32,000 nt of DNA from Thermoproteus tenax Kra 1 (GCF_000253055.1 NC_016070.1:1380001-1412000), one strand, 5' to 3'. Shown: positions 3,839-23,947, numbered from the stretch's first letter. Made by a program: numbers and translations. The notes: generated by a model not told the origin, from the sequence alone.

Positions 3839-3958
3839 CGGGCCCGGTGGGATTCGAACCCACGACCTACGGGTTTCCACGGGCGCCACGCGCCCTTAAA
3901 AGCCTCGGCGGACTTGGGCTGGGTCCACCGCCGCTCTACCGGGCTGAGCTACGGGCCC
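3839..3958 (-). tRNA. tRNA-Lys (anticodon TTT) with two introns
   Basis: The reverse complement reads GGGCCCG TA GCTC AGCCCGGTA GAGC G GCGG[TGGACCCAGCCCAAGTCCGCCGAG]G CTTTTAA [GGGCGCGTGGCGCCCGTGGAAA] CCCGT AGGTC GTGGG TTCGAAT CCCAC CGGGCCC G. The anticodon stem is GCGGG/CCCGT. Both inserts are identical to those in the tRNA at 1058-1178. Confidence 0.85.
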
Positions 3959-4418: not shown

Positions 4419-5327
4419 CTAGCTGACTTCCAGATATCTTCCGCCCAACTTTATTTTGACCCTAATGCTCCTCGACGTCGGGCTGTTCGGGTGCACGCCC
4501 TCCTCTGTATATAAGATACTGCCGTCGTCTACCACATATTCGTTCTCGCCGGCGTTGATCATTGCCTCGCGGAAGACCCTAGCGCCTATCTGGAACAAGT
4601 CCTTGGACTTGCTTCGACATATATGGACAGATACGCTTGATATCAGCTCCATGAGCCTCTTGGCGGACTCAAAGCTGCCGACAACAGAGTTCTCTCTGAT
4701 TTTAAACCCAAGGCGCTCGAGGCTCTGAAAGTTGCTGTCGGATACGTCCAGCTCGTTTATGTTCACGAAATCTATCAACTTCTCGGCGGCGAGTCTGTTC
4801 ACCGCCTCTGCTATAGTTTTCTCAAGCCCAGGCACGGCCGGCACCTCAACGCCCAGCGATATACCTGCTTGTTTAAGCGCGAATATCGCTGGCCTCTTCA
4901 CGGAGACCTCACTCCAGCCAAGCAGATGGAGCCTTACTTCGTCTATGCCCGAGCTGATCAATACGTCGACCGTTTCCCTATTCAGGCTCGAGGGCTTGGT
5001 GTAGAGGTGAATATGGAAGTCTTCGCCTAGCTCACGCTTGAGGGCTCTCACCGTGAGGAACACTCTATCGGGCACGGCGAGTGGGTCCCCGCCAGTTATT
5101 GCGGCCCCAGATGCGCCCGACTCAGCGACTATTTCAACTATTTCATCCACCGACTTCACAGGCACGTCGTTCACGTAGATCGCGTCCCTCCCGAACTTCT
5201 CCCTGTTTACAGGACAGTAGAAGCATCTGTATCTGCATAGCCCAGTGATGAATATCACAGCCTTTGCCCCCAACAGGCAGTACTGACAACCTCTGGCGAT
5301 TTCTCCGCGCTTTATATTATAATACAC
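4419..5327 (-). CDS. radical SAM protein (related to PFL-activase, COG2108-like)
   Basis: CRYRCFYCP is a CxxxCxxC motif, preceded by CQYC. ITGGDPL is also present. GTG start at 5327. Confidence 0.8.
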   Translation of the reverse strand: MYYNIKRGEIARGCQYCLLGAKAVIFITGLCRYRCFYCPVNREKFGRDAIYVNDVPVKSVDEIVEIVAESGASGAAITGGDPLAVPDRVFLTVRALKRELGEDFHIHLYTKPSSLNRETVDVLISSGIDEVRLHLLGWSEVSVKRPAIFALKQAGISLGVEVPAVPGLEKTIAEAVNRLAAEKLIDFVNINELDVSDSNFQSLERLGFKIRENSVVGSFESAKRLMELISSVSVHICRSKSKDLFQIGARVFREAMINAGENEYVVDDGSILYTEEGVHPNSPTSRSIRVKIKLGGRYLEVS

Positions 5328-5368
5328 TGGGGAAGCGATATGCTATATTAAAAAACCATTATGAAGAC

Positions 5369-5959
5369 ATGGGAGAGGAGCTAAGAGAGGAGGAGCGCGG
5401 CGAGGTGAGGTCCGAGCTGATCACAAAGGGCGAGAAGAAGTTAGTGCTCATTAGGTGGAACACCGGTAAAACCTCTGCGGGCAGGCTCTTTGGCCGCTAC
5501 GGTCCCGGCGGCAGACCCGAGTTCTTCAAGCTGCTCTTCGGCGCTGTCGCCGGCTCGCTGAGGGAGCAGTTCGGGCCGGATGGAGAGAATATATTCAACA
5601 GGATCAGAGATTCGGAGAAGTTCAGAGAGACCTCCAGAGAGCTGTTCGACGGTCTGAAGAAGTGGTTCTTCGAGGAGGCGGTCCCACGGTACAACCTGGA
5701 GAGGGGCGACATCTTCATGATCTCGACCGAGCTCGTGTTGGATCCCGATACCGGCGAGCTGCTCTGGAATAGGGATAAGACGCAGCTGATATATTGGATC
5801 AGGAGCGACCGCTGCGGAGGGAGCGACGCCAAACTGAGGGAGGAGCGGGACAGACTGGCCAAGGAAGTAGAGCTTCTGAAGGCCGAGAACGAGAGACTAC
5901 GTAGGGAGCTGGAGGACGTCAAGCGGAAGCTCCAGCAGATAACAAGTTTATTGAAATAA
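5369..5959 (+). CDS. hypothetical protein with a C-terminal coiled coil
   Basis: Internal ATG of track ORF 5264..5959 at a position consistent with the A/T box at 5344-5355. The C-terminus AKLREERDRLAKEVELLKAENERLRRELEDVKRKLQQITSLL is heptad-like. Family not recognised with certainty. Confidence 0.65.
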   Translation: MGEELREEERGEVRSELITKGEKKLVLIRWNTGKTSAGRLFGRYGPGGRPEFFKLLFGAVAGSLREQFGPDGENIFNRIRDSEKFRETSRELFDGLKKWFFEEAVPRYNLERGDIFMISTELVLDPDTGELLWNRDKTQLIYWIRSDRCGGSDAKLREERDRLAKEVELLKAENERLRRELEDVKRKLQQITSLLK

Positions 5960-6010
5960 ACGTATACGTTTTTAAGAAATTCTCTTTTTATTGTAAATTA
6001 CAGGAAATAT

Positions 6011-6148
6011 ATGGAGCGCGTTGTGGTCCCATTAAAGCCCAATGAGCTCAAGCTCTTGAAAGAGATCTGTAAAAAACAAGATTTAGATCTAAATGATTGT
6101 ATAAATTTAGCTATTGCAAATCTATTATATATTTATAAAGGATTATAA
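6011..6148 (+). CDS. 45-aa ribbon-helix-helix (CopG/Arc-like) protein, not in the ORF track
   Basis: The peptide is MERVVVPLKPNELKLLKEICKKQDLDLNDCINLAIANLLYIYKGL. It shows a beta-strand (RVVVPLK) followed by two short helices, the RHH pattern. A/T-rich boxes lie upstream at 5975-6000. Its end overlaps the end of the NurA-like gene convergently by 6 nt. Confidence 0.45.
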   Translation: MERVVVPLKPNELKLLKEICKKQDLDLNDCINLAIANLLYIYKGL

Positions 6149-6919
6149 GTATTCCCTATATCTATTTTGTATATCGATAAACCTAGGGATCAATACTCTA
6201 AGTGATCTCAAAAGCTCTCTAGATATTTTTGCATATCTGTGCGCAAGCCTAAGCTTGATAGGATAGCCATACTTAAAAAACGAAGATATTACTTCTAACG
6301 GTATATATCTAGGAAATTCTATATAGAATACAGAGTCTCCTTTTATGTATGTTGCAAAAAACTCTCCCAAATCCACTGGCTTAAGCATAGTGCCGCGGGG
6401 CTTATCTTGTAGGAGTATCTCTGCTCCATAAAGCTCGGATGTAAGACTGGAGATCTCCTTAAACCATTCGGCCTCTTTGCCGCCTAAGCTGCGCCAATAT
6501 CTAGCTGCAACAGGATCCTTCGAGACCCCTATCACGTAGCCTATGGGCGATCTTATATAGGGGGTTAAGGGTCCATCGACTAGTACGTAGCCCTTCTCCT
6601 CGGCCGCAGACTTAAGCTCCAATTCTCTCACATATCTATTAATATTATTATTTGTTCTCTCTATTTTTTTAATTATAACATTATTATTAATTTTATTATC
6701 TATCTTCGTAATAGTTATCAAAAGCAAATTTGTATGCCTATACTTGAGTTCAATGTATCCGGAATCTATGGCTATATAGTCCGGCGGGTCTATGGACGGC
6801 GGCTTAAGTGTGAGTTGTTCCAGCTCTTTTGCTGCATCTAAGAGCCGCGCCAACCTACCGGTGGAGTCTGGCGCCTCTAGCTCAGCAAGCCTGAGAATCT
6901 CCGAAAGTAAGCCCTTCAT
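6143..6919 (-). CDS. NurA-like nuclease (RNase H-fold 5'-3' nuclease family), non-canonical context
   Basis: Motifs in NurA order: DYIAIDSGY (first catalytic Asp), GYVLVDGPLTP (second Asp), YVIGVSKDP, and YGYPIKLRLAHRYAKIS. The ATG at 6919-6917 overlaps the upstream stop (TGATG). An AT-rich insert encodes KIDNKINNNVIIKKIERTNNNINRY. Confidence 0.7.
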   Translation of the reverse strand: MKGLLSEILRLAELEAPDSTGRLARLLDAAKELEQLTLKPPSIDPPDYIAIDSGYIELKYRHTNLLLITITKIDNKINNNVIIKKIERTNNNINRYVRELELKSAAEEKGYVLVDGPLTPYIRSPIGYVIGVSKDPVAARYWRSLGGKEAEWFKEISSLTSELYGAEILLQDKPRGTMLKPVDLGEFFATYIKGDSVFYIEFPRYIPLEVISSFFKYGYPIKLRLAHRYAKISRELLRSLRVLIPRFIDIQNRYREYL

Positions 6920-7422
6920 CAATAGATCTCTCCGTAGAGCACTTCCAACGCCTTAGCCAGCCTGTCCCTATCAATATGTCCGATCAAATCCGCTAGATAG
7001 CTGGGGAGCTCAGCCTCGCCGTCCACATACTTCTGTAACGCCAACAACGACTTCGATCTCTTGTACCTCCTCCTCTCCTCCACGACGACCTTCTTCAGCT
7101 TCTCAACTATCTCCCTCAGTTCATCTCGGCCCTTCGCGTCCTCCAACTCCTGCGCCACATATCCCAGGGCCTCGTAGAGCGAGAGCGGAACTGCCCTTAT
7201 ATATAAAACGCCGTTTAAGAGGGCTGCAACAGGTCTCCCGGTGTACTTCCCCCAAGCGACTATAGAGCCGCCTCTGGTCTCCCCCACGGCTATCAAAGAC
7301 TTCAGTTCCCTACCTCTGAATAGTATAACGTCGTAGAACTCATATGGCGGCCTGGCGTCTATTACTATATCGGCGTCCCATCTTAGATCGCCCTCCCTTA
7401 CGATGAAGATCTTACGAGACAT
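6919..7422 (-). CDS. hypothetical protein (167 aa), middle gene of the ATPase/NurA operon
   Basis: Starts MSRKIFIVREGDLRWDADIVIDARPPYEF... The N-terminal half is beta-rich and the C-terminal half is helical and charged. The ATG at 7422 lies inside the last 11 nt of the upstream ORF, and the stop overlaps the next ATG. No family recognised. Confidence 0.65.
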   Translation of the reverse strand: MSRKIFIVREGDLRWDADIVIDARPPYEFYDVILFRGRELKSLIAVGETRGGSIVAWGKYTGRPVAALLNGVLYIRAVPLSLYEALGYVAQELEDAKGRDELREIVEKLKKVVVEERRRYKRSKSLLALQKYVDGEAELPSYLADLIGHIDRDRLAKALEVLYGEIY

Positions 7423-10252
7423 ACCTCTTGACCACCAGCCCCCTTTGAGACAGCAACTCAAGATATCTCAGAATTACGTTTTTGTCTTGTGACGTCTCCT
7501 CGGCCAATCTATCTATATCTAGCTCAGTCCCTGGGCCCTTGGAGGCCACGGCCCAAAGGACTTGGTAGGGCACGCCAAGCTCTTCGGCCTTTAGCTTAAG
7601 TGTGCCCTCTATATCTGAGCTCGCAAGGCCCAGACGGCTTCTTATCCAACTAGCTGCGTTATCTCTCAACCTCGCAGCGTTCTTAAAGGCCTCGTATTTC
7701 TCTCTGGCCCGCGACGAGTAGATTCTCAATAGCGCCAAGTATTCCTCCAACCAAGGTTCAGGCAAATTCAACAAGAGCTCTAGGTCTGTCTCGACAGATA
7801 TGTTATCGCCTAACTCGGAGACTATGGGGCGCAGTGAGGTCCATATTGAGCGGATTTCGTCGACCTTAGCGACTACATCGGTTTCTCTTTTGAGAACGCT
7901 CTCGTCTAACGCCATGAACTTGATCCGTTGGGGCAACCTCTCCGCAATCTTCTCGAGCTGTTCTGCTAGCTCTTTTTTCCTCTGCGCCTCTCGCTCCAGT
8001 TCCTCCCTTATTTCCGCTGCCTTCTCTTGTATTTCCAGCAGAGTCCTCTTCAGCTCTATCACCAGCTTGGCATAGTCCTCTCTGTTTCTGAAGTCTCTGT
8101 TGCGTATCTCTATTTCTATTCTCCTGACGACTTTAATGTCGCCGAATATTTTGCTTTTAACGGAGACAGATATCTCGGCATTCTTTCTTATCTGGCCGTA
8201 GAGCTCGTCGAGGTATTTGGATGACGCCTCGGGCGTGAACCGCATGTAAGTCCTCTCGCCCCTAGGCACAAGAAGGCCGACGTACACCATCAAGGCAATT
8301 AAGTCGTCCTCGCGTATGTCCCTCCACAGGTTGACCGGGAATAGCCTTGTTATCAACGATTTCAACTCCCTTTCGTGGATAACGTCTCCGATCTTCCTCA
8401 GAAGGATCTCCGTTATTGTCCCGAAGGAGGCCATTCCCTCGGGCGTCTCGCCCGAGATTATCTGCTCAGCCGCCTTTAGCAGAGAGAGCTCCTTTTTCTC
8501 CTTCCCTCTCCTTAAGGCCAGAGTATACTTCAGCACGTGTTCGCGCAACTTCTCGCGGGAAAGCTTGGCGTTCTCCACGAACTCCAACGGCTCGGGCTCC
8601 TTCTGCAGAAGCTTATTAATATAATATTTTATTATCTTATTTTTTATTTTATCTAATTTATCTGCTCCATAAATAGATATATACATAAATTCGTTAGAGC
8701 TATCTAAGTATGAATTTTTCCAACTTAATTTCAATACCGGCCCGATGGATCTCTCGATCTCCTCTGACAAGAGTACCGGCGAGAATATAAACCCAAGCAG
8801 ATAGTCTATTGGATAGCTTTCAATAGAGCCTTCCATTATTATCTTATTTAATTTATCTTTAAGATTTGATAATGATTCCTCATTATCTATATAAGCTATA
8901 ATGAATAATTCTCTAAATCCGAGAGTATTTATCCATACGGCCTTTCCGCAACATAGCTTGAACTTAATGCCGTTGAGCCCCAATAGGTTTTCCAGTTCAT
9001 CTATCAACTGCGATGGATCTTGTAGGCGTCGAATCAGATCCTCCTTTACCTTTATCAGATCGCTTCCTTCGTCAATCCTCTTGCCTAGCTCGTCGGCTAC
9101 TAGATAGCCCTCGTCGAATAGATAGTCGCTGAGCTCTTCTACTATTTTGTCAGAAAATAGATATACCACTAAGTCTCCTTGTTCTAACGTTGTATAATAG
9201 AGATAGGGCTCATATGATACAGACCTCTCGTCCATCAGATCTATCCTTATTCCTCTCATCTCCAATAGCTCTTTAACTATATTCATACCCTCTTTATCCG
9301 AAAATCTTATTTTATATATGTATACTTTTTTAAATAAATCTTTAAATTTCTCAGACACATTCTTGACAGGTATCCCCGATGTGGCGTACTCGGCGATCTC
9401 TCTATGGGGGATCTCTAGACCTTCCTCAATGATTATGTCGGCTACGCCGCCGCCTTTCATTTTGAGCTCGTACAGCCTGGCAGTTAGCTTGAGAAGCGAT
9501 CTAGGGCTCACCTCTCTCTTCTTCATGGCTATGTGATACAATGCTGCTAGCTCGTGGAGAGCAAAGGGGCCAAGCTCCTTTTCCGAACCGGCGGAATAGG
9601 CTTGTATCCTAGACTTGACGATCTCTACATAGAGCCAGAACGGAAATCTGGTGTCTATCTGGATCTCTCTATAGACTCTGCCCGTTGTTATATCGAATAC
9701 GTCCGGTATTATATTCTTTAGTATTGTATAGTAAACTTGGGGAGTTAGTGCCGCTATTATCAAAACTTGGTCGTAATCTTCAGGGTTTTTCAATACGTGG
9801 GGATAGTTCTTCGGCTCCAACAGAGCTCTCACAACGGAGGCTAGATCCATGACCGCCCTCCTGAACTCCTCGTAGGATAGGGCGCCGAGCTTGTGCACTG
9901 CGGCGAGGCGCGATAGCTCATCAGCCTCGTCTATGAGAACGATGAGGGGTTCGCCGGCTTTTTTTCCTCCGAGGCTCTGGAGAGCTTCCTCACGAAAGGC
10001 GCCAGTGAGCGCCAACCTCACCACCTTTAGCCCTCTCCTTTGCGCCTCCTCGTACACTTCGTCGAGGAACTCGCTCTTACCATAGCCGTAAGGAGCTACG
10101 ACGACTGAGAGAATATTGTTCTTGGTCTTTGTTACAAGATCCAACAGTTCTATGACTTGTTTCAACTCTTTTTCGAATCCTACAGCACGGTGTAGCCTGT
10201 GGACGTGAGTGACCCCCGATGGATGGAACGGAAGATCCAGAATATTATACAT
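7412..10252 (-). CDS. large AAA+/STAND-like P-loop NTPase (946 aa) with a helical/coiled-coil body and a C-terminal winged-helix-like tail
   Basis: VGFEKELKQVIELL precedes Walker A (VVVAPYGYGKSEFL). Walker B is EPLIVLIDEADEL and LIIAALT is sensor-1-like, an ORC/Cdc6 or 'archaeal ATPase'-like layout. A coiled coil (EIQEKAAEIREELEREAQRKKELAEQLEKIAE) is present. The C-terminus DKNVILRYLELLSQRGLVVKRYVS is wHTH-like. The gene appears leaderless, with an atatata box at 10275-10281. Confidence 0.75.
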   Translation of the reverse strand: MYNILDLPFHPSGVTHVHRLHRAVGFEKELKQVIELLDLVTKTKNNILSVVVAPYGYGKSEFLDEVYEEAQRRGLKVVRLALTGAFREEALQSLGGKKAGEPLIVLIDEADELSRLAAVHKLGALSYEEFRRAVMDLASVVRALLEPKNYPHVLKNPEDYDQVLIIAALTPQVYYTILKNIIPDVFDITTGRVYREIQIDTRFPFWLYVEIVKSRIQAYSAGSEKELGPFALHELAALYHIAMKKREVSPRSLLKLTARLYELKMKGGGVADIIIEEGLEIPHREIAEYATSGIPVKNVSEKFKDLFKKVYIYKIRFSDKEGMNIVKELLEMRGIRIDLMDERSVSYEPYLYYTTLEQGDLVVYLFSDKIVEELSDYLFDEGYLVADELGKRIDEGSDLIKVKEDLIRRLQDPSQLIDELENLLGLNGIKFKLCCGKAVWINTLGFRELFIIAYIDNEESLSNLKDKLNKIIMEGSIESYPIDYLLGFIFSPVLLSEEIERSIGPVLKLSWKNSYLDSSNEFMYISIYGADKLDKIKNKIIKYYINKLLQKEPEPLEFVENAKLSREKLREHVLKYTLALRRGKEKKELSLLKAAEQIISGETPEGMASFGTITEILLRKIGDVIHERELKSLITRLFPVNLWRDIREDDLIALMVYVGLLVPRGERTYMRFTPEASSKYLDELYGQIRKNAEISVSVKSKIFGDIKVVRRIEIEIRNRDFRNREDYAKLVIELKRTLLEIQEKAAEIREELEREAQRKKELAEQLEKIAERLPQRIKFMALDESVLKRETDVVAKVDEIRSIWTSLRPIVSELGDNISVETDLELLLNLPEPWLEEYLALLRIYSSRAREKYEAFKNAARLRDNAASWIRSRLGLASSDIEGTLKLKAEELGVPYQVLWAVASKGPGTELDIDRLAEETSQDKNVILRYLELLSQRGLVVKRYVS

Positions 10253-10274
10253 GCTTGAGGTATCCCGATCGACA

Positions 10275-10281
10275 ATATATA
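10275..10281 (-). promoter_or_regulatory. TATA box of the ATPase/NurA operon (palindromic, possibly bidirectional)
   Basis: atatata lies 23-29 nt upstream of the ATG at 10252. Confidence 0.5.
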
Positions 10282-10304
10282 GTCTGTAAACAATTTACAA
10301 CCGA

Positions 10305-10440
10305 AAGCCTCGCCCTTCGGGGCGGGGATGGGTTCTGCGATTTTTTAATCGCTCCAGCCGCGCGCACATAACCCCAAGGAGGGGCAACGGGCGAGGCCCC
10401 CCACAGTGGAGGCCCAGCCCTTTAGGGCGGGGAGCGCGGT
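10305..10440. ncRNA. GC-rich island between divergent promoters; candidate structured RNA, family unresolved
   Basis: Two near-identical 17-mers form GC hairpins: gcccttcggggcgggga (10312-10328) and gccctttagggcgggga (10417-10433). There is also a gcgatt-tttt-aatcgc hairpin and long-range ccgcgc/gcgcgg pairing. The track ORF 10295..10549(-) is not protein-like. Confidence 0.3.
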
Positions 10441-10477
10441 CATAAATGGTAAAAACCCTACTCTCCCTCCGTAGTCC

Positions 10478-10951
10478 GTGGCTATACAGCGATGTACTAG
10501 CGATTACCTTAAGGGAGTTTACGATGTAGAGTTGGAGTCCTTCAATCAATACGATGTATATAGCCTTGAATTACTTAAGTTTTTATGCTCATTTTGTGGA
10601 GATTATTCGTATGTCTTTATTGATAATAATGAAATATTAGGATATATTATTACATGTAAAGATGACGATTCTGCACATATTATCTCCATCGCAGTCAAGA
10701 GGAAGGCAAGACGGAGGGGCATAGGAAGCGCGCTACTTTGTACTGCCTTGAGGCTACTTGAAAGAGGAGAGGTAAAGAAGGTATATTTAGAGGTACGCGT
10801 GAGCAACTCCGACGCTATAAGGCTCTATGAAAAAGCTGGATTTAAGATCGTCGAAACACTGGAGGGCTACTACGGCGATGGTGAGGCGGGATATAGGATG
10901 GAGATAACAGATAGAAAGATAGCAAAAGAATTTTGTAAAAATTATAAATAA
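10478..10951 (+). CDS. rimI: GNAT N-acetyltransferase, RimI/Ard1-like
   Basis: The acetyl-CoA binding motif is ISIAVKRKARRRGIGSALL, followed by LEVRVSNSDAIRLYEKAGFK. GTG start about 25 nt downstream of an A/T box at 10442-10457. Confidence 0.85.
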   Translation: MAIQRCTSDYLKGVYDVELESFNQYDVYSLELLKFLCSFCGDYSYVFIDNNEILGYIITCKDDDSAHIISIAVKRKARRRGIGSALLCTALRLLERGEVKKVYLEVRVSNSDAIRLYEKAGFKIVETLEGYYGDGEAGYRMEITDRKIAKEFCKNYK

Positions 10952-11098
10952 TTTATTTTCTTACTATAATATTTCTTAATTGAAATAATAAATATTTTTA
11001 TTTTGTTATTACTATATAGTATCTTTATGTAATCTTCCAGTGATATATCGCCTGAAATATACAATTTATCCAACAAGTTCACGCATTTCTAGTCGCCT

Positions 11099-11155: not shown

Positions 11156-11704
11156 GTGGACATCTGCGTGGCCTCTGGAGCAAAGGGGGGCACCGGCAAA
11201 ACGACCTTTAGCTTCATACTAGGCCACATATTAAACTATTTATATAAAGACAATATTATACTTATAAATCTATCAAAAATACCATATAATATAAAAACAG
11301 ATTTATATATATCTACTGATATTAATGAGGGAGGTTCCCTCAGAGTCCTCGACTTCCCTGCCTTTCAGATGTCCGACAGATACCTATTGAGCCTATATCT
11401 CTCCTGTAAAAACATGGTTTTTGTAGTTGATGAAGATCCCTACACGGCTGAAATAGCCGAGGCCTTTCTTCGCCTTTTAAATAATAAAAATATTGCAATA
11501 ATTATTAATATGATCATAGGTAAACCTTCTATAAAATATTTAATAAAATATAGAAAAATATCAAATATATATTTAGTACCATACGATGAAAATATAAGAA
11601 TATATAGGACAGAGGGTCTTGATCCCATAAGGGTCAGAAGCCCAGGGGTCGCCAAAATGATCAGGGCGGCCGTCGACATTGCAAGAAGATTAAATAGCTC
11701 ATAA
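11156..11704 (+). CDS. short ParA/MinD-family P-loop ATPase (182 aa)
   Basis: The deviant Walker A is SGAKGGTGKTT at the N-terminus. MVFVVDEDP is Walker B-like. Two AT-rich patches encode N/I/K/Y-rich segments. Confidence 0.75.
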   Translation: MDICVASGAKGGTGKTTFSFILGHILNYLYKDNIILINLSKIPYNIKTDLYISTDINEGGSLRVLDFPAFQMSDRYLLSLYLSCKNMVFVVDEDPYTAEIAEAFLRLLNNKNIAIIINMIIGKPSIKYLIKYRKISNIYLVPYDENIRIYRTEGLDPIRVRSPGVAKMIRAAVDIARRLNSS

Positions 11705-11716
11705 CAGCAGTGACAC

Positions 11717-12520
11717 GTGAGAGGTCTTGTTGTTAAGATAGGGCGGGAGAGGATCCTCTTAGTTGCTGATACTCACGTGGGCTACGAGGTTGAATTAAGG
11801 CTTAACGGAATATATGCAACTAGCCAGACGGCGCGACTAAGGAAAAACTTAATAGAGTGGGGCGAGGAGGTAGGCGCGAACACGCTGGCTATTTTGGGCG
11901 ATATTAAACACGAGCTGCCAGTGCCCCGCGAGACCGCCAGTGAGGTTAGAGAGTTTCTGAAGGATCTGTCTAAGAGCTTCGAAAGAGTGATCCTAATACC
12001 GGGCAATCATGATTCAATGATAGATGAGATAGCTGATGGCATCCAGGGGGTTTACGTGGCCGACAGCAGGGGAGTTCTCCTAGAGGGCCCGCGCAACGTG
12101 CTCCTCCTGCATGGACACGCTAAACCGCGCCCTGAGGACCTAGCGGCGTCGGACGTATTGGTTATGGGACACACTCACCCCGCTCTGTCTATTGTCGACG
12201 AAATAGGATACATCTCTAGAGAGCCTGTTATTCTCAAAATAACCCAGAACAAGGGCGAGCTTTTCAGGAGGATGTTCGGCGGTGAGGCCGAGGGCGGCTA
12301 TATAAAGGTCGTGGTACTGCCGGCCTCACACCCTCTCATAACGGGCTATGATATCATTAATTTAATCCAGCTAAATAACGATGAAAGAACTATTATGAAA
12401 TATATGAATTTAGATTATAGATCAATTGAGGTATATTTAACTGATTTTACATTTCTAGGAACGTTAGATGTTGTAGCGGAGTCTAAAGAGGAGAGTCGGC
12501 TTGAGATGGTGACATCATAG
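11717..12520 (+). CDS. calcineurin-like metallophosphoesterase (ICC-like, COG1407-type)
   Basis: Motifs are LLVADTHVG, ILGDIKH, IPGNHD, LLHGH and MGHTHP, in the canonical metallophosphoesterase order. Confidence 0.85.
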   Translation: MRGLVVKIGRERILLVADTHVGYEVELRLNGIYATSQTARLRKNLIEWGEEVGANTLAILGDIKHELPVPRETASEVREFLKDLSKSFERVILIPGNHDSMIDEIADGIQGVYVADSRGVLLEGPRNVLLLHGHAKPRPEDLAASDVLVMGHTHPALSIVDEIGYISREPVILKITQNKGELFRRMFGGEAEGGYIKVVVLPASHPLITGYDIINLIQLNNDERTIMKYMNLDYRSIEVYLTDFTFLGTLDVVAESKEESRLEMVTS

Positions 12521-12521
12521 C

Positions 12522-13835
12522 TCAGGCGCTGCCCGCTCCCCTCATCGTATCTCCAAGTTCATCGCTTGGATATAAATATTTCAGAAGCTGGCTCACTCTT
12601 TCAATTTCTTCGAAGTTCTCATTGAGCCTTATAAGGCCTAACCTTATGCAGGAAGCCCTTGACATAGCTCTCTCGGTCTTAGACGACGTGTAAATGACTG
12701 CCTTCTTTCTGTCATAGTATATCTTCTTCAGGACCCCTAGGCCGAGGAGGAAACCCTCAGAGTCCTCAATGCCGATTAACAGTCCTCTTTCGAATCCCTC
12801 GGGCAGTCCGACCACTTTAAATGCGCCTATTCTTCTTGAGATCCATTGGTCGGTGATTATGTAGAGTGTCGAGCCCGCTTGGTTTGCGTAGGTGATATGA
12901 GAGTTCACGATGCGCGACGCCATGGCTCTGAGCTCGCTCCCCAGATCTACTCCTCGAAATAGGCCCAGCCCGCATAGTGGTAACTTGTCCAGGTCGATGG
13001 AGAGCTCCCTGAGGGGAAAGATGAATCTGGCATAGCTCATCTCTCTGTGGATCTTTCTATCTTCCTTCGTGCGTAGCCGGGCAGCCGGAGGCGGTCTCAC
13101 AATGGTCACGTTGGAATAGCCCTTGATTATCTCATCGAGCTCGTTTTCTATCTTTATTGCTACTATGTTGTTGGGTCTCAGCTCTGTTAACAAGGATCTC
13201 TTATACTCTATGGCCTCTCTCCCGTTTATCCACCCGTCTGTATTCACAATGATCGCGTCCACTGACCACGTCCTTCTGGCATAAGCAATTAGCCTCTTGA
13301 CGGCCTCTACGGCGCGCGGCCAGATCCTCTCAAGGCTCGTCGACTGCATAAATACAGACTTCTCGGCCTGCACTTGTCTGAGACTTGTAATCGGGCGCGT
13401 TACTCTGCTTATCGATATGGTGGTGGGAGGGCCAATGTCGTTCTGACCCACATCTGCGTCGATGACGGCCACCCTCAAGCCGTTCAACAGCGCCTTGTTG
13501 GCCAAAACTGCAGTCATGGTGGACTTCCCAACGTCTATTGATCCTATAACTATTGACGTGCCGCTTAAGGCCAGCTTGGAGATAGCGCCTTCCCACTCGT
13601 CCAACACCTCTTCGCCTGGCTTTGCCAGCTCCAAAACTGCGTTCGGCCCCAACGTCACGCTGACCTTGGCCCTCTCTATCGCCTTGAAGGCCAACTTTCT
13701 AGCCCTTAGGACGGTGAAGTGGCTACCGCCCGAATATATCGCGCCCACCGCGTACACCGAGCCCTCCATGACGTCTATTCTGGCCGGTCCCTCAACGCGA
13801 TATATCTGGCCAGGCTCCAGAAGGTAAATCTTCAC
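12522..13835 (-). CDS. Clp1/Grc3-like polynucleotide 5'-hydroxyl kinase (P-loop)
   Basis: An N-terminal beta domain precedes Walker A (IVIGSIDVGKSTMTAVLAN). Also present are AVIDADVGQNDIGPP and IIVNTDGWI. The layout matches archaeal Clp1-family kinases. GTG start. Confidence 0.8.
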   Translation of the reverse strand: MKIYLLEPGQIYRVEGPARIDVMEGSVYAVGAIYSGGSHFTVLRARKLAFKAIERAKVSVTLGPNAVLELAKPGEEVLDEWEGAISKLALSGTSIVIGSIDVGKSTMTAVLANKALLNGLRVAVIDADVGQNDIGPPTTISISRVTRPITSLRQVQAEKSVFMQSTSLERIWPRAVEAVKRLIAYARRTWSVDAIIVNTDGWINGREAIEYKRSLLTELRPNNIVAIKIENELDEIIKGYSNVTIVRPPPAARLRTKEDRKIHREMSYARFIFPLRELSIDLDKLPLCGLGLFRGVDLGSELRAMASRIVNSHITYANQAGSTLYIITDQWISRRIGAFKVVGLPEGFERGLLIGIEDSEGFLLGLGVLKKIYYDRKKAVIYTSSKTERAMSRASCIRLGLIRLNENFEEIERVSQLLKYLYPSDELGDTMRGAGSA

Positions 13836-19119: not shown

Positions 19120-19503
19120 ATGGAGCCCATCAGGAAAATAGAGGAGGGCCTTAAAGAGCTCTACACTGCGAACGTGGGAAAGATCGAGAGAGAGCCTGAC
19201 GTAGATATATATGAGCAGGGAGAGAGCCTTCTAATATTAATAGACCTGCCAGGCTTTAGAAAAGACTCTATAAAGGTCAAACTGTTTGAACATGCAGTAG
19301 AGATAACCGCTCTTCCCAACTCGGACGTGCCGGGCCGTGCCATAACGAGGGAGAGGGCGGCTAACTTCCCGGTCCAGAGAAGAATCGAGCTGCCGTTTAG
19401 GCTTAGGGTCGATACCGCAAAGGCTATATACAAGGACGGCGTCCTTCAGATATCTGCCGTCAAGGCGGGCGAGTTGGGCACTGCCGAGCTGAAGATCGAC
19501 TAA
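19120..19503 (+). CDS. hsp20: small heat-shock protein, Hsp20/alpha-crystallin family
   Basis: Motifs are [27 protein letters not shown], then RRIELPFRL and [10 protein letters not shown]. Confidence 0.85.
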
Positions 19504-20048
19504 AGTTTCGCCCACCTGAAGCCTATTAGAGCAACTTCGTTGCTTGGTTTTAACACTGTCGCAAAAGTGAACGTTTTTCTGACAGAGTGGGAGAGACGCC
19601 CGCCTCTTGCTATATCTGTGGCGCTTATCCCTCTGTCCGGCTCTAGAAACACGACGACCATCGGCGCATGGTCTATTCCGGGCCCCTTCTCATACACTGA
19701 AAACAGCGCTCCAAACTTAAGACCCGATTTTACAATGTACCCTAAATCTCTGAAATGTTTATATATAAGATAGATATCATCGAAGTTTTTTATATTCTCT
19801 CTTCCAATTTTTCTCAGTTCTTCTATTTCTATTTTTTTATCATCTTCGTATACCTCGAGTATGCCCCTCTCGGCCAGATATAATGCCTCATACAAGGCCA
19901 GAACAAGCGGAGACTCCAGTTTGTCGACCTCATCCAGCTTGACCTTATCTTTCAACAAGAATTTGCCGTAGAAGCCCCTCTTATATATAGCCCGCGCCTC
20001 TTGCGGGTCTTCAATTACTACCGCTAGGCCTCTGAGAACTCCCCTCAT
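19500..20048 (-). CDS. endA: tRNA-splicing endonuclease, catalytic subunit
   Basis: Motifs are [39 protein letters not shown] and [13 protein letters not shown], the catalytic Y/H/K region. The 182-aa size is typical of the crenarchaeal catalytic subunit. Confidence 0.85.
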
Positions 20049-23854: not shown

Positions 23855-23947
23855 TGGGGCCGCCGGGATTTGAACTTCCCCCGGCGTCCGCCGTCCGGGG
23901 TCTCGCGGGCCCAAGCCGCGCATCCTACCAGGCTAGACCACGGCCCC
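23855..23947 (-). tRNA. tRNA-Pro (anticodon TGG) with a 19-nt intron in the T-arm
   Basis: The reverse complement reads GGGGCCG TG GTCT AGCCTGGTA GGAT G CGCGG CTTGGGC CCGCG AGACC CCGG[ACGGCGGACGCCGGGGGAA]G TTCAAAT CCCGG CGGCCCC A. The T-stem CCGGG/CCCGG forms only after the insert is removed. Exon CCCCGG can pair with intron CCGGGG, a BHB-like arrangement. Confidence 0.8.

Follow-up and report, generated by a model that had tools for sequence, protein, structure and literature searches.

An operon of Thermoproteus tenax that couples a NurA-family nuclease to an AAA+ ATPase of a kind other than HerA

NurA nucleases and the T. tenax operon

The usual partner of the nuclease NurA is HerA. Indeed, every characterized or catalogued NurA that we found in the literature has a HerA-class partner, whether its setting is DNA repair, a CRISPR-associated cluster or the transfer of DNA in Thermus. 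We have analysed a stretch of 32 000 nucleotides (nt) from the genome of Thermoproteus tenax Kra 1 (GCF_000253055.1, NC_016070.1:1380001-1412000; hereafter the window, with positions counted from its first letter), in which three tightly coupled genes on the minus strand encode an AAA+ ATPase, a middle protein and a NurA-like nuclease. The literature searched contained no description of this operon, nor of a NurA whose partner is an AAA+ ATPase other than HerA, and the operon proteins are annotated in databases only as ‘NurA’, ‘ATPase’, ‘hypothetical protein’ or ‘ArsR family regulator’. An earlier note on this DNA, made from the sequence alone, had put the operon forward as a candidate undescribed ATPase–nuclease system, and neither curated families nor the searchable literature assign a pathway to the ATPase or to the operon. 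What is new is the switch of partner together with the presumed adaptor; an ATPase-coupled NurA nuclease is itself of a known kind. Our working hypothesis, which we consider a little more probable than improbable, is that the operon encodes an ATP-regulated nuclease complex whose AAA+ component would serve as a switch and not as a translocase, and which would have a role in chromosomal DNA repair or maintenance alongside HerA–NurA. The features concerned are:

7412-10252, minus strand: ATPase gene, 946 amino acids (aa), ATG start
6919-7422, minus strand: middle gene, 167 aa counted from ATG
6143-6919, minus strand: NurA-like nuclease gene, 258 aa counted from ATG
10253-10295, minus strand: promoter region, with a TATA-like box and a conserved upstream element

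The ATPase and middle genes overlap by 11 nt and the middle and nuclease genes meet at the junction TGATG, so that coordinates and junctions are as the earlier note had given them. The start codons of all three genes are supported because homologues start at the same residues.

The HerA–NurA systems of Sulfolobus solfataricus, Pyrococcus furiosus and Thermococcus kodakarensis have in common with the operon a NurA-family nuclease of RNase H fold, with its Asp/Glu/Asp site and its Lys and Tyr, and an arrangement in which the nuclease shares its operon with a P-loop ATPase and is presumed to depend on this ATPase. The differences are that the partner in the T. tenax operon is an AAA+ ATPase with ORC/Cdc6-like structural matches, whereas that of the known systems is of the HerA/FtsK class; that the operon always has a third subunit and shows no linkage to Mre11/Rad50; that its nuclease is of 258 aa, against ~330-450 aa in HerA–NurA systems; and that it is confined to Thermoproteales and related Thermoprotei, coexisting with canonical HerA–NurA in Pyrobaculum. 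This coexistence bears directly on the possibility that the operon is a functional replacement for HerA–NurA end resection in organisms that have lost the canonical system. The coupling of a NurA-family nuclease to an ATPase would suit such a replacement, as would the SbcD-related phosphoesterase encoded 1.5 kb upstream of the operon and the content of the window, where no sizeable open reading frame (ORF) has a Pfam match to HerA, Rad50 or Mre11. However, Pyrobaculum genomes contain at least three nurA–herA pairs, including a putative recombination pair, in a table that does not include the operon studied here (Bernick et al., PMC3396285), and Pyrobaculum oguniense, which carries the operon as Pogu_0218 and the next two genes, also has its putative recombination pair, Pogu_1338/1337, and further pairs besides (PMC3396285). 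Furthermore, the AAA+ ATPase has no Pfam or fold-search similarity to FtsK/HerA translocases. Because canonical pairs coexist with the operon in Pyrobaculum, we have dropped the idea of a replacement as very unlikely. The wording of the earlier note, in which the ATPase stands ‘instead of HerA’, accordingly holds for the operon, as does its observation that HerA, Mre11 and Rad50 are missing from the window, but it does not extend to the whole genome in Pyrobaculum.

The nuclease, the ATPase and the middle protein

The 258 aa protein matches the Pfam NurA family (PF09376) with 29.9 bits, against a cut-off of 21, over positions 3-254 of the 254-position profile. The same profile is matched independently by all 23 aligned relatives at E≤0.01 (best E 8.4e-12), and the nuclease homologue from a distant locus, L020 (see below), has a precomputed NurA match. 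Residues D52, E101, D115, K134, Y219 and H227 are invariant in 23 sequences from Thermoproteus, Pyrobaculum and one distant lineage, while the nucleases of Vulcanisaeta and of locus L014 retain the first five and have D in place of H227. We predict that D52, E101, D115 and H227 form the active site, together with the conserved K134 and Y219. The NurA of S. solfataricus has D58, E116 and D133 as its catalytic residues, with the conserved K202 and Y298 flanking the active site (PMC3326311); from motif order and the span of the Pfam alignment, D52, E101, D115, K134 and Y219 plausibly correspond to these. Replacement of H227 by D is tolerable for a metal ligand at the fourth RNase H-like position, which argues for retained catalysis. 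A sequence-profile search of the PDB with the family alignment matched no solved NurA, as the family is too divergent for the solved structures to be within reach of such a search, and the link to NurA is therefore made through Pfam alone. The identity that the earlier note had proposed for this protein is thus borne out: it is apparently an active, compact NurA-family nuclease, of RNase H fold by family and with the metal-binding set complete.

The ATPase was modelled with AlphaFold2 (AF2) from a 30-homologue alignment, giving a confident model with a mean predicted local distance difference test score (pLDDT) of 85.7, and domain bounds were read from the secondary structure of the model:

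Residues 1-26: N-terminal peptide, more highly conserved than any other part
Residues ~27-300: AAA+ base and lid
Residues ~301-556: two alpha/beta domains
Residues ~557-723: basic helical/winged-helix region, winged-helix-like by model reading
Residues 724-880: coiled coil
Residues 881-946: C-terminal winged helix-turn-helix
Motifs: Walker A, G56-S60; Walker B, D108-E109; sensor-1, T170; candidate Arg finger, R192; sensor-2, P250-R251

Conservation is distributed over every domain, with no hypervariable sensor region. In the AAA+ core, K59, D108/E109, T170, R192 and P250-R251 are invariant among the 30 homologues, and all the ATPase and NurA motifs quoted in the earlier note are present and invariant or nearly so. 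T170 is the candidate for sensor 1, R192 for the Arg finger and P250-R251 for a sensor-2-like motif, the roles of R192 and R251 being proposed from their position. With these motifs intact the protein is, as far as can be told from its sequence, a catalytically intact AAA+ ATPase.

When the model was compared with the PDB by Foldseek, only AAA+ proteins were returned, many with a probability of 1.0 (E 6e-6 to 1e-3). The best matches were to Cdc48/p97 and Orc1/Cdc6/ORC, among them the Cdc6 of Pyrobaculum aerophilum (1fnn), and next came clamp loaders, MuB and Bcs1; the ORC/Cdc6 matches are partial, with template modelling (TM) scores normalized to the target of 0.40-0.46. A Foldseek search of viral structures gave generic AAA+ matches alone, and a sequence-profile search of the PDB with the ATPase family found only designed P-loop or coiled-coil proteins at E≥0.002. 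Neither the 946 aa ATPase nor any of the 30 homologues has a Pfam match to HerA, FtsK or DUF87, no such fold appeared among the Foldseek results and no other gene of this class is present in the window, so that the earlier note was correct in describing the ATPase as not HerA-like.

The likeness to Orc1/Cdc6 and ORC goes beyond the presence of structures 2qby, 1fnn and 7jgr among the best matches. The ATPase has a VGFEKEL motif N-terminal of Walker A, its lid contains a sensor-2-like helix (‘SPRSLLKL’), and there is a winged helix-turn-helix (HTH) at its C terminus, where the HTH matches of the family are to MarR_2 (14 of the 30 members), TrmB and ArsR-type HTH_5. The basal ATPases P0034 and P0035 carry an extra segment right behind the lid, which in P0034 is an above-threshold TrmB-type winged helix and thus suggests an ORC/Cdc6-like domain order. 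The ORC/Cdc6-like AAA+ module with C-terminal winged helix that had been recognized in the earlier note is therefore supported by both the fold and the HTH matches. However, the ATPase is ~550 residues longer than Orc1/Cdc6, the excess comprising the two alpha/beta domains, the basic helical region and a 150-residue coiled coil, and it is co-encoded with a nuclease. Pfam gave no Cdc6/ORC match for the ATPase or the 30 homologues, nor did NCBIfam for the ATPase, and in the model we see neither the two-helix initiator-specific insert between strand 2 and Walker B, where there is one short helix (86-94), nor a pre-sensor-1 hairpin. For want of this insert and hairpin we regard the protein as representing an orphan AAA+ family near ORC/Cdc6–STAND and a member of neither; it reaches no curated family threshold in Pfam or NCBIfam. 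One ATPase homologue is annotated as an ArsR-family regulator.

The earlier note had also read AT-rich stretches in the three genes as low-complexity inserts and as a sign of relaxed or rapid evolution. The stretches are indeed AT-rich (local GC 0.15-0.30), but we reject their interpretation as low-complexity inserts and as relaxed regions, since they align without gaps to the homologues and, in the ATPase, hold the invariant residues W511, K512, Y528 and G529 within segments modelled with pLDDT >90.

The middle protein, which the earlier note could liken to nothing, gave no match in Pfam, NCBIfam, PADLOC or PHROGs, and a Pfam scan of 22 homologues gave no consistent match. Its AF2 model, made from ten Thermoproteus sequences, is of low confidence (pLDDT 63.5; <50 at residues 1-57, ~88 at residues ~100-167); it has a beta-rich N-terminal half and a helical C-terminal half and produced no Foldseek match (best E 0.08). 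All complete operons have the middle gene placed between those for the ATPase and the nuclease, and it is solely from this constant position that we presume the product to be an adaptor or regulatory subunit.

Distribution and genomic setting

When 1.84 billion representative proteins were searched exhaustively with a profile, 37 relatives of the ATPase were found at E≤1e-3, of which 24 were at E≤1e-30. The carriers are T. tenax and Thermoproteus metagenome-assembled genomes (MAGs); P. oguniense, Pyrobaculum arsenaticum, Pyrobaculum ferrireducens, Pyrobaculum islandicum, Pyrobaculum neutrophilum, Pyrobaculum calidifontis and Pyrobaculum strain WP30; Vulcanisaeta; and uncultured Thermoproteales/Thermoprotei, with Thermoproteus uzoniensis represented through its middle protein. 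Among the members that could be placed, the operon thus appears restricted to Thermoproteales and related Thermoprotei. Where the contig reaches, the order ATPase–middle–NurA, with overlaps or gaps of a few nt, is found at 14 distinct loci, with ATPase identity down to ~30%. The case that decides in favour of linkage is L020 (Thermoprotei MAG GCA_003649205.1), which encodes the most divergent full-length ATPase (1245 aa) and in which every neighbouring gene is different: RNase P subunits are encoded upstream, and downstream there is a gene for a B12-binding protein. The trio holds together in this completely different neighbourhood, so that the synteny on which the earlier note had made its proposal depend is found across the family, and the neighbouring genes are not part of the module. 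At the same locus an extra 272 aa gene without a family match (5196-6014) overlaps the start of the ATPase gene and may be a fourth, lineage-specific component. At another locus, L019 (Vulcanisaeta distributa JCM 11216, draft), the ATPase and NurA-like genes are broken into several ORFs (5983-11037), which could reflect frameshift sequencing errors or pseudogenization; the Vulcanisaeta locus L017 is intact.

In Thermoproteus and Pyrobaculum, contig permitting, the operon is flanked on one side by genes for a RimI acetyltransferase, a 182 aa ParA-like P-loop protein, an SbcD-related/PdeM-like phosphoesterase, a Clp1-type kinase, PriL and AGOG, and on the other by genes for ThermoDBP and a radical-SAM protein; two Pyrobaculum-lineage loci have other genes in place of that for the Clp1-type kinase. 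When T. tenax is compared with P. oguniense, the ATPase and the middle protein each show 45% identity and the nuclease 35%, and for the neighbours the identity ranges from 37% (the ParA-like gene) to 58% (PriL). These identities indicate that the operon has diverged at a pace comparable to that of its neighbours, somewhat faster than the replication genes yet in step with the species, and the locus looks to have been vertically inherited within a housekeeping region.

Some of the neighbours merit separate mention. ThermoDBP is the non-canonical protein for the binding of single-stranded DNA that is reported in crenarchaea without a classical single-strand-binding protein (SSB). Its gene (5264-5959, plus strand; PF18361, E 4e-94) and the NurA-like gene converge, and at every Thermoproteus and Pyrobaculum locus examined the ThermoDBP gene is found 0.2-2 kb downstream of the operon. 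As the Pfam domain starts at residue 48, translation probably begins inside the listed TTG ORF. On the other side, the 182 aa ParA/MinD-like P-loop protein, the SbcD-related/PdeM-like metallophosphoesterase and the Clp1-type polynucleotide kinase are encoded in a conserved cluster at 11156-13835, which may represent another module for nucleic-acid repair close to the operon. The phosphoesterase matches TIGR00024 with 80.7 bits, below the cut-off, and at the distant locus L002 (3494-5265) it instead adjoins a DUF87/CedD/HerA-like ATPase.

The genomic setting is of particular importance in considering whether the operon could be a chromosomally fixed immune or conflict module, in which an AAA+/STAND-like NTPase would sense virus or plasmid DNA or protein and unleash the NurA effector, in the manner of Avs/nSTAND proteins and of the ATPase–nuclease pairs Gabija, Septu and DUF4297–HerA. 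A large multidomain NTPase together with a nuclease fits the general logic of such systems, among them STAND/nSTAND and the BREX proteins BrxC/BrxD, and a weak P-loop similarity does recur among the 30 ATPase family members (nSTAND_NTPase5 in 15, AAA_16 in 10 and BrxC_BrxD in 9). These matches all fall below the Pfam cut-offs, however, the best to nSTAND_NTPase5 having an E value of 2e-4 and the matches to that family scoring 17-20 bits against a cut-off of 34, with AAA_16 likewise below its cut-off of 32.6, and they span just ~60-90 residues of the P-loop region. Nor does the ATPase have a fused effector or, in the model, any repeat superstructure or repeat-type sensor domain, and its conservation is even along its length. 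Searches of the operon proteins against PADLOC gave only noise, at E≥0.009 to unrelated models, PHROGs gave no match and a scan of viral contigs gave no relatives. The faster divergence of the nuclease and the ATPase relative to the adjoining replication genes would suit an immune function, as would the fact that a second NurA paralogue of the same organisms is CRISPR-associated (PMC3396285). That cluster resembles the operon in containing a lineage-specific NurA paralogue separated by one gene from an ATPase gene, yet its ATPase is a HerA paralogue, it includes a CARF protein (Csm6) and it adjoins CRISPR arrays (PMC3396285), whereas the operon studied here has an AAA+ ATPase and no CRISPR or cas neighbours. 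Indeed, neither a CRISPR array nor any cas, mobile-element or defence gene is present in the window, and the operon occupies a fixed position among housekeeping genes, free of such neighbours, in all Thermoproteus and Pyrobaculum loci. Its distribution is order-wide and looks vertical, not patchy, which sets it apart from defence systems of variable islands. We therefore consider an immune role unlikely, and the resemblance to STAND-type defence modules suggested in the earlier note is weak.

Proposed function, promoter region and remaining features

In the mechanism that we favour, the three products would form one ATP-regulated nuclease complex in which the ATPase does not thread DNA into NurA in the manner of a HerA-type ring translocase. 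The ATPase would be a nucleotide-dependent switch or loader, as are ORC/Cdc6, clamp loaders and MuB; a DNA end or structure would be bound by its winged-helix and basic regions, the protein would probably dimerize or oligomerize through the coiled coil and the AAA+ interfaces, and it would recruit and license the nuclease through the middle protein as adaptor. We prefer a switch to a threading motor because of the ORC/Cdc6-like AAA+ core, the HTH-type and basic regions and the coiled coil, and we favour repair or maintenance over mobile immunity because of the core-genome placement and vertical inheritance of the locus. The most likely role would accordingly be one in chromosomal DNA repair or maintenance beside the canonical HerA–NurA system, not in its stead.

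Several observations weigh against this mechanism. At locus L018 the ATPase and middle genes are present with no nuclease gene downstream, and at L004 other small genes come after a divergent ATPase gene (P0035, 893 aa) near the contig end, exceptions which indicate that the nuclease is not strictly obligatory. The three operon genes diverge somewhat faster than the adjoining core replication genes, and the middle protein offers no functional clue. Moreover, the substrate could be RNA instead of DNA, given the Clp1-like kinase nearby and the RNase P subunits of L020. In the part of L004 behind P0035 (10633-11459) there are a 99 aa gene and a gene for a 176 aa protein with a DnaG-type primase zinc ribbon, and the contig ends soon after.

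Some of the same observations would suit a non-nucleolytic or RNA-directed machine, that is, either an ORC-like factor of chromatin, segregation or transcription with the NurA-like protein as a structural or nucleic-acid-binding subunit, or an RNA-processing complex. Besides the lineage that retains the ATPase and middle genes without the nuclease, the two HTH-type regions and coiled coil of the ATPase, the annotation of one homologue as a regulator, and neighbours such as the ParA-like P-loop protein, the Clp1-like polynucleotide kinase and the L020 RNase P subunits are consistent with a machine of this kind. However, the catalytic set of the nuclease is kept across lineages at ~25-30% identity, with an H-to-D swap that fits a metal ligand; characterized NurA proteins are DNA nucleases (PMC3326311); and the neighbours at L020 differ from those elsewhere, which places them outside the module. 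A machine of this kind is in our view decidedly unlikely.

A bolder form of the proposal that the operon encodes an ATP-regulated nuclease complex is that of an order-wide DNA-maintenance machine, in which the ORC/Cdc6-like AAA+ switch would sense a specific DNA structure and license NurA via the novel adaptor. We put this forward as speculation that is rather less likely to be right than wrong. Such a machine may be connected with the unusual equipment that the Thermoproteales have for replication and recombination, in which, for example, ThermoDBP replaces the canonical SSB. If the proposal is true, it would define a new mechanistic class of NurA regulation. A permanent coupling of NurA to an ORC-like AAA+ protein and a new adaptor would in any case mean that a different kind of ATPase can drive this nuclease. 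[quoted passage not shown] The reach of the finding is limited, as the family is very small and does not extend beyond one archaeal order.

The promoter region contains the sequence TATATAT at ~10275-10281, i.e. at -24 to -30 from the ATPase ATG, where the earlier note had placed a leaderless-type TATA box, and an (A/T)ATATAT box is conserved at equal distance at the homologous loci of Thermoproteus and Pyrobaculum. A box 24-30 nt upstream of the first ATG, at a conserved distance, makes a leaderless transcript plausible, and the operon mRNA is probably leaderless. Next to the TATA box on its upstream side is a second element, ATTGTTTACAG, at 10284-10294, which relatives conserve as TTTTGTCTAYAG; it is seen at loci L001, L005-L008, L013, L015 and L016, with its position kept across Thermoproteus and Pyrobaculum. 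The TTTTGTCTAYAG-type element may be a B recognition element (BRE) or a regulator-binding site. The notion that it serves as a regulon signal inside the window was dropped, as no enrichment was found elsewhere in the window.

The intergenic segment that separates the ATPase gene, at its start, from the divergent rimI-like gene is GC-rich and measures ~150 nt (10285-10440), against only ~70-80 nt at other Thermoproteus loci. The plus-strand RNA of this segment has a minimum free energy of -72.9 kcal/mol and is more stable than shuffled controls (z = -2.8). Its identification as a known RNA was dropped, since the sole Rfam match, HgcC, is below threshold (19 bits against a cut-off of 50). Elsewhere in the window there are three minus-strand tRNA genes of 93-121 nt (1058-1178, 3839-3958 and 23855-23947), one of which is for tRNA-Pro(TGG); from their length all three presumably contain introns. 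A tRNA-splicing endonuclease gene is also present in the window, at 19500-20048 on the minus strand.

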